64,000 bases of DNA, taken from assembly GCF_013167455.1 (NCBI RefSeq), contig NZ_CP038328.1; one strand, given 5' to 3'. The position numbers were made by a program. The first letter of the stretch is position 1. Each line of letters begins with the position of its first letter. Of this stretch, positions 6,001 to 12,000 are shown in pieces. This DNA comes from Escherichia coli O157:H7. GTDB lineage: Bacteria; Pseudomonadota; Gammaproteobacteria; Enterobacterales; Enterobacteriaceae.

Positions 6001-9000
6001 TGAGCCGTCTATCGGCCTGCACCAGCGCGATAACGAGCGCCTGTTGGGTACGCTTATCCATCTGCGCGATCTCGGTAATACCGTGATTGTGGTGGAGCAC
6101 GACGAAGACGCGATTCGCGCCGCTGATCATGTGATCGATATCGGTCCTGGTGCAGGTGTACATGGCGGTGAAGTGGTCGCGGAAGGTCCGCTGGAAGCGA
6201 TTATGGCGGTGCCGGAGTCGTTGACCGGACAGTACATGAGCGGTAAACGCAAGATTGAAGTGCCGAAGAAACGCGTTCCGGCGAATCCGGAAAAAGTACT
6301 TAAGCTGACTGGCGCACGCGGCAACAACCTGAAAGACGTGACGCTAACGCTGCCAGTCGGTCTGTTTACCTGCATCACAGGGGTTTCAGGTTCCGGTAAA
6401 TCGACGCTGATTAACGACACACTGTTCCCGATTGCCCAACGCCAGTTGAATGGTGCGACCATCGCCGAACCGGCACCGTATCGCGATATTCAGGGACTGG
6501 AGCATTTCGACAAAGTAATCGATATCGACCAAAGCCCAATTGGTCGTACTCCGCGTTCTAACCCGGCGACCTATACCGGCGTGTTTACGCCTGTGCGCGA
6601 ACTGTTTGCGGGCGTACCGGAATCCCGTGCGCGTGGTTATACGCCAGGACGTTTCAGCTTTAACGTCCGTGGCGGACGCTGCGAGGCCTGTCAGGGCGAT
6701 GGCGTGATCAAAGTGGAGATGCACTTCCTGCCGGACATTTACGTGCCGTGCGACCAGTGCAAAGGTAAACGCTATAACCGTGAAACGCTGGAGATTAAGT
6801 ACAAAGGCAAAACCATCCACGAAGTGCTGGATATGACCATCGAAGAGGCGCGTGAGTTCTTTGATGCGGTGCCAGCTCTGGCGCGTAAGCTGCAAACGTT
6901 GATGGACGTTGGTCTGACGTACATTCGCTTGGGGCAGTCCGCAACCACACTTTCTGGTGGTGAAGCCCAGCGCGTGAAGCTGGCGCGTGAGCTGTCAAAA
7001 CGCGGCACCGGGCAGACGCTGTATATTCTCGACGAGCCGACCACCGGTCTGCACTTCGCCGATATTCAGCAACTGCTCGACGTACTGCATAAACTGCGCG
7101 ATCAGGGCAACACCATTGTGGTGATTGAGCACAATCTCGACGTGATTAAAACCGCTGACTGGATTGTCGACCTGGGGCCGGAAGGCGGCAGTGGCGGCGG
7201 CGAGATCCTCGTCTCCGGTACGCCAGAAACCGTCGCGGAGTGCGAAGCTTCGCATACGGCACGCTTCCTCAAGCCGATGCTGTAATCGTTAAGGCCGCCT
7301 TCCGAGCGGCCTTTTCCTTTCAGAGTTGCACCAGCAATTTACGTTTTTCTTCCGGCAGTAAATTCACCGCCTGCTGATAAGACGCATCCACCAGATAATA
7401 GATTTGCGAATCCGGCAGCGAACCGTCGAGATACACGGTGCTCCAGTGCGCTTTATTCAGATGGCGGCTTGGACGCACATCGCTGTGCTGCTGACGTAGC
7501 AGCTCCGCCAGCTCCGGGCTGGTTTTCAGCGAAACAGCTGGGCGATTTTCTACTTCTTTCACCATCGCAAACAGTACATCTTCCACTTTGATCTGCGTCG
7601 CTTTCCAGTCGTTATGCACGCTCTGTTCTGCGCCTGGTTTTGCCATGCAATATTGTAGCAACTCCGAAATGGTCATTTTTTACTCCCCTTGTAGTGTCGC
7701 GATGATGCGACGCGATCCGCCGTGGATGCGATGTTCCCCCAGCCAAATGCCTTGCCAGGTGCCGGTCTGAATACGCCCTTTATGCACCGGCAATACAAGC
7801 GATGTTCCCAGCATTGAGGATTTGATATGAGAAGGCATATCGTCTGCTCCCTCATAGTCATGCTCATAATTTCCGTTGTCGGGAACGGTGCGGAGGAAAA
7901 AACGCTCCATGTCGTGGCGTACGGTGGGATCGCAGTTCTCATTAAGTGTCAGAGAGGCGGAGGTATGTTGCAGCAACAGATGCAGTAAGCCGATGTTAAC
8001 GCGCGGCATATCAGCCAGCTGATTCAGAATTTCATCCGTTACCAGATGAAACCCACGAGATTTGGCGCTAAGCGTGAGCGTCTTTTGATACCACATGTGC
8101 TGCTCCTTGATAAAACTCTCTTAATCAGTTTGCAGCAAGACAGCGAAAGGATAAAGGTGTGATTAAAAAAACAGCATTCGGGAGAGTGTCACGCTCTCCC
8201 GCTCTGTCAGTATTCTGAATTGACGATCACCTCTTCACCAAACGCACCCGCTTGTGGCAAGGGTTTGTAGGTAGAGTTGGAGGCACGCAGAATGCGGATA
8301 CCACGAGCGCCGACATCGCGTGCGGCGGTAATATCGTTATCGGAATCGCCATAAAAAATTCGGATATTTTTATCCTGCAGCCATTGCGATTTTGTATTTT
8401 GCCCTGGTTTATCGCCCGCAAAGATCACCGGATTCATGCTGGTGGCAGGAATATGAAAATTATCCGCCAGCGTTTTTGAAACCGTTTCTGTTTTCGTCGG
8501 GCTACGACCAGTCACAAAGAAGATCGCGTCACCACGGCGTACATGCATATCAATCAGCTGGCGAGCGACCTCTTTTGGAATGCTGAATTCATCCCAGCCG
8601 TTGTTCATTTTTTCCCAGAATACAGGGTTTTTCAGATAATCTTCGCTTTCTGGCGAGAAGTTTTTTTTGCCGCGCCAGAAGCCCGGACTGGAAAAAAGTA
8701 CCGTGTCATCGATATCAAACCCCACCGCCATTGGCGGACGCCCTGCGAGGCTATTTTCAATTTGTGCGACCGAAACCCAATGAATTGGTGCCTGTTCAGC
8801 AAGCCTGGCAACGTTAGTCCCAGGGTTAAGCGGTGAAGGAGATGAGGCCAGGGCAACAGCGGAACTGTTTAGAGCGAACAATAAGCAAACGGCACTGATT
8901 GCCTGTGTGATCTTGCGCATATTTTTCCCTAAATAGTCAGTATGTTGAAACTTTTTATTGTGAGATTTGTTGCAAAAACTATCTGACCATAACGCCAGCT

Positions 9001-12000
9001 ACAGGGGAAAGGAAGGATTATCTGCGGTTTTTGTGATGAAAAGCAGGATGATTATATTTAACCTAGTAAATACGTTCCTGTCGTTTTTTTGTAAAAAATG
9101 GTTAATGCTCGATGTAAGGATACATTAATTTTACGTTTATTATGATGAATACTCTGCAAATGAGCGAAATTTGATAGAACATTTATCTGCTGTACGATTT
9201 AATGAACTTAATGATACAGCATTACAAAAACAATCGAAGTTTATAAAGATGATTTCTGATTGACCAGAACCCTACCCTACAATGGTGATTAATTTTATTA
9301 CTCCCGAAGGAGATGATTATATGAATATATCATATGTGAATAGCAACAAAACGACATCTTTACCTATTGAGTTAGATGTACAAAATAACAAAGATTTTTC
9401 TTATGCCAAAGATTTCTTTTTATATATAGAAACACAGTTAAAAATTGCAAAAGATTTTTGTAGACCTGAAGAAGAAGTATCAAGTTCTATTGCAAGTACA
9501 GTTTTTCACGCTTTTATTGATTTAGTTAACAAAATCATGGGTAAGAAAGATTGTATGTATATTTGCACGCTTTGCTGTTTTGCCGAGGAGGTTAAAGATG
9601 ATTATTCTCATTACAGGACCTTTTCATTTGATATTAGTAATCAATATAAGGTTAAACTTACACAAAGGAGTTCTCTTTAACTTTAGAATTTAATGATACT
9701 GAAATTGAATGTCAGAAAGTCACAGGCAATAAGGCAAAGCATATTCTTGAGGATATAGAAAAATTCTATCGTAACAAACCCGATACTTATTATTAAATTT
9801 AATAATGGTTAGATGTGCAGAAATTATTACTCCACACGAAAAAAACAGGGAAAGGAATTCCAGATAATTGGGATAAACTTAACAATAAAAGAACTAACAA
9901 CGTTTATTATCTCTCACGTAGAACGATGGTATCAAAAAAATCATCTATAAAGAAAGAGTGAAAGCGACGACAGTTTAATTTCACTGCAGGCTGGGTAATT
10001 CCAGCCTGCTTTCCTGCATTACATCACCGCAGCAAACGCCTTTGCCACACGTTGCACATTTGCCGTATTTAACCCGGCGACACACATGCGACCGCTGGCG
10101 ATGAGATAGACACCAAATTCTTCACGTAGTCGGTCAACCTGAGCGGCACTTAAACCGGTATAACTGAACATGCCGCGCTGATTAAGCAGATAATCGAAAT
10201 TGCGTTCTGGCATCTCTGTGCTTAATACCTTCACCAGTTCCTGACGCATTGCCAGAATGCGAGTACGCATCTCTTCTACTTCCGCCAGCCAGCTGGCTTT
10301 CAATGCCTCGTCATTCAGCACTGCAGCCACCACCTGCGCACCAAAATTCGGCGGGCTGGAGTAGTTGCGGCGAACTGTTGCTTTCAATTGCCCCAGTACG
10401 CGGCCTGCAGCTTCGGCATCTTCACACAGAACAGAAAGTCCGCCGACGCGCTCGCCGTAAAGGGAGAAAATTTTCGAGAACGAATTGCTCACCAGAGCGG
10501 GTAATCCAGCGCTGGCAATGGCGCGAATGGCGTAGGCATCCTCTTCCATACCGGCACCAAATCCTTGATAGGCAATATCAAGGAATGGGATAAGCTCGCG
10601 GGCTTTGAGAATTTCAATCACCGCATCCCACTGGTCATTAGTGAGATCGGCACCCGTTGGGTTGTGGCAACATGGATGCAGCAACACAATACTGCGGGCA
10701 GGTAATGTTTTCAGCATCGCCAACAGGTCATTAAAGCGCACGCCGTTAGTCGCTTCGTCATACCAGGGGTAAGTGCTTACTTCGAATCCAGCCCCGGCGA
10801 ATATTGCTACGTGGTTTTCCCAGGTAGGATCGCTGACCCAGACGCCTGATTCCGGGAAGTAGCGTTTCAGGAAATCCGCGCCCACTTTCAATGCCCCTGA
10901 GCCGCCAAGGGTTTGAATGGTTGCTACGCGCTGTTGTTGCAGTACCGGATGGTCGGCACCAAACAGCAGCGGCGCAATGGCATGGCGATAGCTGTTAAGC
11001 CCTTCCATCGGTAAATAAAGCGAAGCGCCATGAGGCACCGCATTCAGGCGCGCTTCCGCCTCCGCCACGGCTTTCAATTGTGGAATAATTCCGTCTTCGT
11101 TGTAGTACAGACCGATACTTAAATTCACTTTGTCGCTGCGAGGGTCTTCTTTAAAACGCTCCATAAGCGTAAGAATCGGGTCGCCAGCGTAGGCGTCAAC
11201 TTTTTGAAACACGCGATGGTTCTCCAGGTTTACGGGCAGGTGGTTAAAACACAATAAACCGGAAGAAGGCGAAGATCGAGTGGATGTTCAGGGGCGAACG
11301 GCAATTAGCAACAGAGTGAGACTCATGACAAACGTACATCCGCCAGAGGCACGACCTTTATAAGAGCATGAAAGAATATCAACTTATTGAATTGGTAGGA
11401 TTTTATTGGCCGGATAAGGCATTCACGCCGCATCCGGCACAGACAATCAAATATTACAGAACGATTAATCCACGTATTTCATCGCGACCCTTGAAGTCAG
11501 GCGCGTAATAAGTTCGTAAGCGCTTACTTTCGTCATTTCAGCGATACGTTCTACGGGCAAACCTTCACCCCACAAAATGACCGGGTCCCCGGCTTTATCC
11601 TGTGCCTGTGGACCTAAGTCTACGCAGATCATATCCATCGCCACGCGCCCGACAATCGGCACTTCGCGACCGTTCACCAGCACTGGCGTACCGGACGGCG
11701 CGGCGCGCGGATAACCATCGCCATAGCCCATCGCAACTACACCAAGACGAGTATCACGTTCGCTTATCCAGGTTCCACCATAACCGACAGGCTCTCCGAC
11801 TTTATGCTCACGCACGGCAATCAGGCTGGAGGTTAGTGACATCACTGGCTGACAGCCAAAATCGGCACCGGTGGAGCGATCTTCCAGCGGCGAGACGCCA
11901 TAAAGAATGATGCCCGGGCGCACCCAGTCAAAATGCGACTGTGGCCACAGCAGAATGCCACCCGACGCGGCAATGGAACGTTGACCTGGTTTGCCTTCGC

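Follow-up and report, generated by a model that had tools for sequence, protein, structure and literature searches.

Orphan genes of Escherichia coli (ORFans) are reportedly short, AT-rich, fast-evolving, and lineage-restricted, as Daubin and Ochman are said to have found in 2004, and they are often tied to prophage remnants. In E. coli K-12, the tyrB/yjbS region (318 bp) belongs to a set of 78 AT-rich "promoter islands"; this region is defective in transcription, was predicted to be foreign, and is bound by H-NS in two chromatin immunoprecipitation (ChIP) datasets (PMC3661553). K-12 yjbS has also been reported as "essential only by TraDIS" (transposon-directed insertion-site sequencing), beside prophage genes and the genes ygeF, ygeG, and ygeN of the E. 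coli type III secretion system 2 (ETT2) region (PMC5821084). Between the same genes, tyrB and aphA, Cai et al. place the KguS/KguR island (PMC3694859). Here we analyzed the aphA-tyrB interval in a stretch of 64,000 nucleotides from E. coli O157:H7 (contig NZ_CP038328.1, hereafter the window), in which a preliminary description had noted an AT-rich islet with one uncharacterized open reading frame (ORF). We consider it likely that this islet is a foreign-looking cassette of ~0.93 kb, the yjbS cassette, which fills a variable slot and in O157 carries a disabled orphan gene that is probably silenced by H-NS. The feature is already annotated (as yjbS or a hypothetical protein) and belongs with the well-known orphan islets, AT-rich and of the H-NS type, that occupy replacement hotspots.

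The bounds first given for the islet, 8921‒10018, are exactly those of the whole spacer of O157:H7 between aphA (8207‒8920, minus strand, gene start at 8920) and tyrB (10019‒11212, minus strand, stop codon at 10019‒10021), and this spacer is 100% identical to many O157:H7 chromosomes in a nucleotide search. The AT-rich character was borne out. In segments of 300 nt, the G+C content (GC) is 0.29‒0.34 over 8900‒9999, against 0.48‒0.55 in the flanks. The spacer holds the lowest-GC kilobase of the window (0.30 versus a mean of 0.515), and among all 991-nt segments of the window, only those starting at 8851‒9101 have a GC of 0.33 or less. The islet had been drawn somewhat too wide, since the AT-rich insert proper is the 931-bp cassette at 9053‒9983 (GC 0.294), and the remaining ~132 nt at 8921‒9052 are the conserved upstream region of aphA (promoter/5′ leader, minus strand), which lies outside the variable cassette. 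As far as a TGTGATC-type motif, which reads ATAATC in O157, this region aligns across species with LF82 (a B2 strain), E. albertii, E. marmotae, and Salmonella. The GC of 8921‒9027 is 0.374, and the nucleotide diversity over 8921‒9059 is 0.011, equal to that of the flanking genes.

We counted the states of the slot in 5426 complete E. coli genomes. Both the interval and its ORF differ among these genomes and are not the same in every E. coli, which supports the initial reading of the segment as a strain-variable insertion. The yjbS cassette is present in 4328 genomes (308 at at least 99% identity to the window and about 3980 at 90‒95%) and was found in no other species. A KguS/KguR island of 13.6 kb occupies the slot in 1045 B2-type genomes (LF82, CFT073, ST131, SE15) and also in E. 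albertii. A short spacer of 336 nt is found in 19 E. coli genomes, with counterparts in E. marmotae (229 nt) and Salmonella (186 nt), and a few E. coli genomes have an interval rearranged by the insertion sequence (IS) IS1. Neither the 1045 B2-type genomes nor the 19 E. coli genomes with a short spacer contain the cassette, and it is likewise missing in E. albertii, E. marmotae, and Salmonella; about 1063 genomes, including the 1045 with the Kgu island, match the window over the first ~139 nt only. In E. marmotae and Salmonella, tyrB and aphA are directly adjacent, and a short slot is all that separates the terminator hairpin of their spacer from the conserved ~140-nt aphA upstream region. Therefore, the AT-rich segment of ~0.93 kb is extra to the enterobacterial ground plan. 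In the rare short-spacer allele of E. coli (L028 and L029; spacer at L028:1651‒1986), the terminator is of the ancestral type and the slot shows homology to the one in E. marmotae; the yjbS cassette and the Kgu island are both lacking. These genomes are bona fide E. coli, because their flanking genes are 97‒99.7% identical to those of O157 and LF82. The variable piece is not a sporadically mobile element; several fillings alternate in this one slot, each excluding the others, and the yjbS cassette appears to be vertically inherited within the lineages carrying it.

The cassette and the Kgu island share the slot between the tyrB terminator hairpin and the TGTGATC-type motif upstream of aphA, and junction alignments place their ends within a few nucleotides of each other. 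In O157, the hairpin has a 9-bp stem (GCAGGCTGG-N6-CCAGCCTGC, 9986‒10009) and lies directly downstream of the tyrB stop codon. It is the probable tyrB terminator, since it aligns at the position of an AGGCGG...CCGCCT terminator hairpin in LF82, E. marmotae, and short-spacer E. coli; a consensus terminator scan did not call it. The hairpin of O157 and K-12 resembles that of LF82, E. marmotae, and the short-spacer type (compared at L008:2702‒2760 and L024:7948‒8010) but has one extra base pair and another loop; it may be the ancestral terminator in altered form or may have been brought by the cassette. The slot is also a hotspot of IS1, for which the AT-rich DNA is a target, as seen in strain SL124 (L004), strain 23779 (L007), and the match H63: the aphA 5′ end and most of the islet are deleted in one strain, the islet carries an insertion in another, and kguS is truncated in the B2 strain. 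In K-12, IS1 was found at nucleotides 193/204 of yjbS in clones from two macrophage-evolved populations (PMC4999529).

Although the KguS/KguR α-ketoglutarate utilization island (c5032‒c5041 of CFT073; PMC3694859) is mutually exclusive with the yjbS cassette in the same slot, the two differ in kind. The island consists of metabolic and regulatory genes of normal GC and demonstrated function, and the cassette shows no sequence similarity to it. In E. albertii (L021‒L023), the kgu island adjoins aphA and is collinear with that of LF82 (L008) over 7.8 kb; the identity between the two is 85‒94% in the island genes and 88‒92.6% in the flanking core genes. The divergence is thus core-like. With its presence in E. 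albertii, the island is not specific to uropathogenic E. coli (UPEC), and on these alignments it may be old in Escherichia. The yjbS cassette could then have replaced a vertically inherited, ancestral KguS/KguR island, and the published order of an "island inserted in UPEC" would be backwards. The agreement between island and core genes in the E. albertii-B2 comparison is as expected from vertical descent, and the near-coincident junctions of both cassettes in one slot also favor such a replacement. However, short spacers occur in E. marmotae, Salmonella, and the 19 E. coli genomes, and the homologous short slots of E. coli and E. marmotae indicate that an "empty" allele has persisted in Escherichia. 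These short spacers lowered the weight of an earlier view that took Kgu for the ancestral state and the cassette for its replacement. The islet, moreover, contains no kgu remnant, and the three Escherichia species are about equidistant at the locus, so that the tree does not fix the order. We therefore keep both entry into an empty slot and displacement of Kgu as orders of events, and we regard displacement as possible but less likely than not. Comparison of the cassette with the short slot displaced gave no significant remnant similarity (p about 0.08).

The 132-residue ORF of the preliminary description is present on the plus strand at 9282‒9680, opposite to aphA and tyrB, between which it lies. 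Its start is likelier to be the ATG at 9321, which is preceded at a distance of 8 nt by the Shine-Dalgarno motif AAGGAG (9307‒9312, plus strand, read from the sequence). The resulting ORF of 119 residues (9321‒9680) equals WP_001303754, a coding sequence (CDS) called by the Prokaryotic Genome Annotation Pipeline (PGAP) as a hypothetical protein in O157:H7; the O157 locus tags gave no lead in the literature. K-12-type genomes are annotated at the homologous position with yjbS (b4621 in K-12, 67 residues), which shares its locus, strand, and start codon with the O157 ORF. The interval is ~95% identical in DNA between O157 and the K-12 type, and the first ~46 residues of YjbS are near-identical, aligning over 1‒46 with few substitutions. 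In product length and frame, the O157 ORF does not match the 67-residue reference: the K-12 protein results from a 1-bp deletion, in an allele that also has a slip of an A7 tract to A6, whereas O157 lacks the 1-bp deletion and reads 119 residues as a consequence of a 10-bp deletion. By alignment, the formerly "uncharacterized" ORF is thus a truncated form of yjbS, a locus that already has an annotation.

The nature of the truncations became evident from 13 alleles spread over the whole identity range, in which the ORF was read; the interval had first been aligned from four strains. Nine of the 13 alleles are intact, with 161‒179 uninterrupted codons, and the other four are truncated by three different lesions. 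Strains with an intact gene include O111:H8 9662 and those of the ST405 type. One lesion is the 1-bp deletion that leads to the K-12-type 67 residues in an allele that also carries the A7-to-A6 slip; slippage from A7 to A6 alone gives 126 or 132 residues. The third lesion, that of O157, is the deletion of 10 bp (CGGAAAAAAA) between 9667 and 9668 on the plus strand (DNA alignment columns 803‒812), which takes out the A7 tract, so that the altered frame ends at a premature TAA stop codon at 9678‒9680 and the C-terminal third is lost. Across this point, the intact alleles read ...TQSGKKE(F/L)SLTLEFND..., and the O157 ORF aligns with their residues 1‒115. The last 37 codons are still found out of frame at 9683‒9796 (plus strand; LEFNDTEIECQKVTGNKAKHILEDIEKFYRNKPDTYY followed by a stop codon in translation), near-identical to the intact C-termini. 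The O157 allele therefore has the mark of a pseudogene, a disabling lesion relative to intact orthologues of the same species. From these alignments, the 119-residue O157 and 67-residue K-12 proteins are two different truncations of one gene, of which the form with 161‒179 residues is ancestral. The length of the intact alleles is set by an 18-bp tandem repeat encoding the hexapeptide ISYAKD, present in 1 to 4.6 copies; Tandem Repeats Finder (TRF) gives 4.6 copies in SW4848, other alleles have 1‒2, and a repeat-pair search located a single-copy remnant at 9386‒9420 (plus strand) in O157. The A7 tract occurs as A7, A6, or deleted according to lineage, and a tract of A7 is short for high-frequency phase-variable switching.

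PGAP calls the intact alleles of 161‒179 codons "frameshifted", often with an additional CDS of 83 residues. Examples homologous to 9321‒9796 of the window are L003:1902‒2405, L006:1902‒2441, and the loci L011 and L014‒L019. These calls probably arise because the PGAP reference is the truncated 67-residue YjbS of K-12, and the intact yjbS gene is therefore systematically mis-annotated. As a separate observation, many contigs of O157 draft assemblies end inside the ORF at 9321‒9680, giving partial proteins of 50‒110 residues with many break points, which may reflect poor coverage of DNA with 29% GC or IS insertions.

The intact gene bears a coding signal. When the islet was simulated 5000 times with a first-order Markov model, only 0.12% of the runs gave an ORF of at least 132 codons, and the 161‒179 codons of the intact alleles at 29% GC are less likely still. 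Among the nine intact alleles, the pooled ratio of nonsynonymous to synonymous substitution rates (dN/dS) is 0.32 in the true frame, whereas the two alternative frames give 1.19 and 0.82, and insertions and deletions in the repeat span whole 18-bp units and so keep the frame. The frame-specific dN/dS, the frame-keeping indels, and the strong Shine-Dalgarno motif point to a real gene under weak purifying selection. Nucleotide diversity is 0.028‒0.047 in the islet, while the neighboring portions of aphA and tyrB have 0.011. Such diversity fits DNA under weak constraint and accounts for the identity of just 90‒95% between most genomes and O157 here. The highest diversity of the interval (π of 0.047) lies at 9797‒9975 in the non-coding AT-rich tail of the cassette (9797‒9983), where small ORFs do not keep their frame between alleles. 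One of these, a 48-residue ORF at 9815‒9961 (plus strand), was tried as a λ integrase arm-binding domain (PF09003) and rejected: its E-value of 0.075 falls short of significance, the match is absent in the SW4848 allele, and its frame is unconserved, so that the likeness is probably due to chance.

These data also bear on whether the locus contains a gene at all. The frame could instead be open by chance in AT-rich, H-NS-bound promoter-island DNA that is itself functional or neutral, as might be suspected from the lack of detectable homologues or domains, from the moderate to low confidence of the structure model described below, from the four broken alleles among the 13 sampled, and from the description of the K-12 region in the literature as a promoter island defective in transcription (PMC3661553). 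However, neither the length of the ORF in the simulations nor the contrast between a dN/dS of 0.32 and values of about 1 in the wrong frames is expected of a chance frame, and the same holds for the properly spaced Shine-Dalgarno motif and the 18-bp periodicity of the repeat indels. A simple consensus scan also gave no significant excess of promoter-like sites. We consider a chance frame the most improbable of the explanations weighed here and retain yjbS as a gene.

YjbS has no detectable relatives beyond its genus. As first described, the ORF has no recognizable motif, and no Pfam, NCBIfam, PHROG, or PADLOC family reached a significant score. A search of 5.8 billion clustered proteins gave 64 matches, all of them (64/64) from Escherichia, and the seemingly "distant" ones among them are frameshifted or chimeric reads of the yjbS gene. 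An exhaustive profile search with HMMER over 1.84 billion representatives gave 28 matches and nothing recognizable beyond Escherichia yjbS; the 13 matches with sequence examined are yjbS fragments or chimeras, and the rest are short stretches whose sequence was not examined. No fold match for YjbS was found in the PDB or among viral folds. Likeness to type III effectors and chaperones was non-significant only, with an E-value of 0.8 for SipA and Foldseek E-values of 0.08‒0.3 with template modeling (TM) scores of at most 0.25 for SrcA and SycT. Intact YjbS is an Escherichia-restricted orphan protein. Two apparent exceptions were discarded. A KguR-YjbS fusion protein (P0056) derives from a chimeric contig of a long-read metagenome (ENA ERZ27273331, contig_1024_polypolish; L009), in which segments of the Kgu island alternate with segments of the yjbS cassette and which has the look of a consensus assembled across two coexisting E. 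coli strains. The only genome-contig match, labeled "Flavobacterium paronense CECT 8460" (NZ_JAUFQN010000013.1; L020), is almost certainly an E. coli contaminant, a contig of 9.5 kb that is 96.9% identical to the window from uvrA to tyrB.

An AlphaFold2 model of intact YjbS, built from an alignment of nine sequences with a mean predicted local distance difference test (pLDDT) score of 63, comprises a disordered N-terminus (residues 1‒26), three helices (28‒95), a four-stranded sheet (105‒144), and a C-terminal helix (146‒160). The sheet and the terminal helix are the best-predicted part of the model, and most of this part is lost with the O157 truncation at residue ~116. With this loss, the O157 ORF is most likely a non-functional, slowly decaying remnant. 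The O157 allele, compared with the intact alleles, gives a pooled dN/dS of 0.53, and its private changes at otherwise invariant codons comprise seven nonsynonymous and two synonymous ones. These small numbers are consistent with relaxed constraint on the O157 branch.

We also considered whether the truncated protein of 119 residues works in its own right, for example as a stand-alone helical domain, which would make the islet a working lineage-specific gene. The Shine-Dalgarno motif and the ATG are intact, the predicted helices at 28‒95 are kept, PGAP calls a normal CDS, and 308 genomes show hardly any variation in the allele; this invariance among O157 genomes is, however, expected because the clone is of recent origin. 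The loss of most of the region from 105 to 160, the predominance of nonsynonymous among the lineage-private changes, and the independent inactivation of the gene in other lineages all argue against such a function, and we regard it as improbable, if slightly less so than a chance frame. Loss of function in O157 seems the better account of the allele. A function of the intact form is another matter. The intact gene could be a functional E. coli-restricted orphan with a new fold and a hexapeptide repeat of variable length, having arrived with the AT-rich cassette at an insertion hotspot, for example as a niche-specific or secreted factor, and lost independently by O157 and K-12. We consider this unlikely as well, though a little less so than a working 119-residue protein.

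The resemblance to the K-12 promoter island suggests how the cassette may behave. The O157 cassette is ~95% identical to the K-12 member of that group and equally AT-rich, and by analogy it is probably coated and silenced by H-NS. A simple σ70 consensus scan, which is not the PlatProm method of the published work, gave no significant excess of promoter-like sites, with 8 in the islet versus 5.7 ± 2.4 in shuffles. Coating by H-NS can lower transposon insertion. Such coating would explain why yjbS appeared essential by TraDIS only. Like the E. coli ORFans, yjbS is short, of 29% GC, weakly constrained, often inactivated, and without homologues outside its genus; it differs from those tied to prophages in having no phage or viral similarity in searches for either.

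The GC of the cassette (0.294), far below the mean of 0.515, and its patchy distribution with absence from close relatives are those of a xenogeneic islet, and the foreign-looking DNA would be of horizontal origin. On the other hand, the cassette is not a classical integrative genomic island. It contains no integrase, transposase, other mobility gene, or Rfam family and is surrounded by no direct or inverted repeats beyond chance. Phages, viral contigs, and genuine plasmids gave no match to it, and the "plasmid" matches obtained were mislabeled chromosomes or chromosome fragments.

Taken together, an AT-rich cassette occupies, in most E. coli outside B2, the variable slot that lies between the terminator of tyrB and the promoter region of aphA, and it encodes a single gene, yjbS, whose product is predicted to have a disordered N-terminus with the variable ISYAKD repeat, followed by three helices and a sheet plus helix. 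In O157, the 10-bp deletion at the poly-A tract cuts the protein at residue ~116, and the cassette, probably coated by H-NS, may in practice serve to space the aphA promoter from the tyrB terminator hairpin. Several observations weigh against this account. In the O157 allele, which 308 genomes conserve, the Shine-Dalgarno motif, the start codon, and all of the helical half are retained, and the truncated product may have some residual function. The dN/dS of 0.32 amounts to weak constraint and comes from just nine alleles. The AlphaFold model is of only moderate confidence (pLDDT 63, shallow alignment), and the cassette has neither mobility genes nor target-site repeats. We nevertheless consider a slot-filling cassette with a disabled orphan gene the likely explanation.

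The modestly new elements are the allelic series in which both reference proteins are truncated, the PGAP artefact, and the multi-state slot. With both references truncated, genome pipelines flag the intact gene as a pseudogene, and the value of the finding is mainly in the housekeeping of annotation; the current understanding of O157 biology is unchanged. The slot, with its short spacer, yjbS cassette, and Kgu island, qualifies the simple picture of an island inserted in UPEC, and it could serve as a lineage marker. If the intact protein is functional, yjbS would offer a tractable case of orphan-gene gain followed by repeated loss inside a single species.

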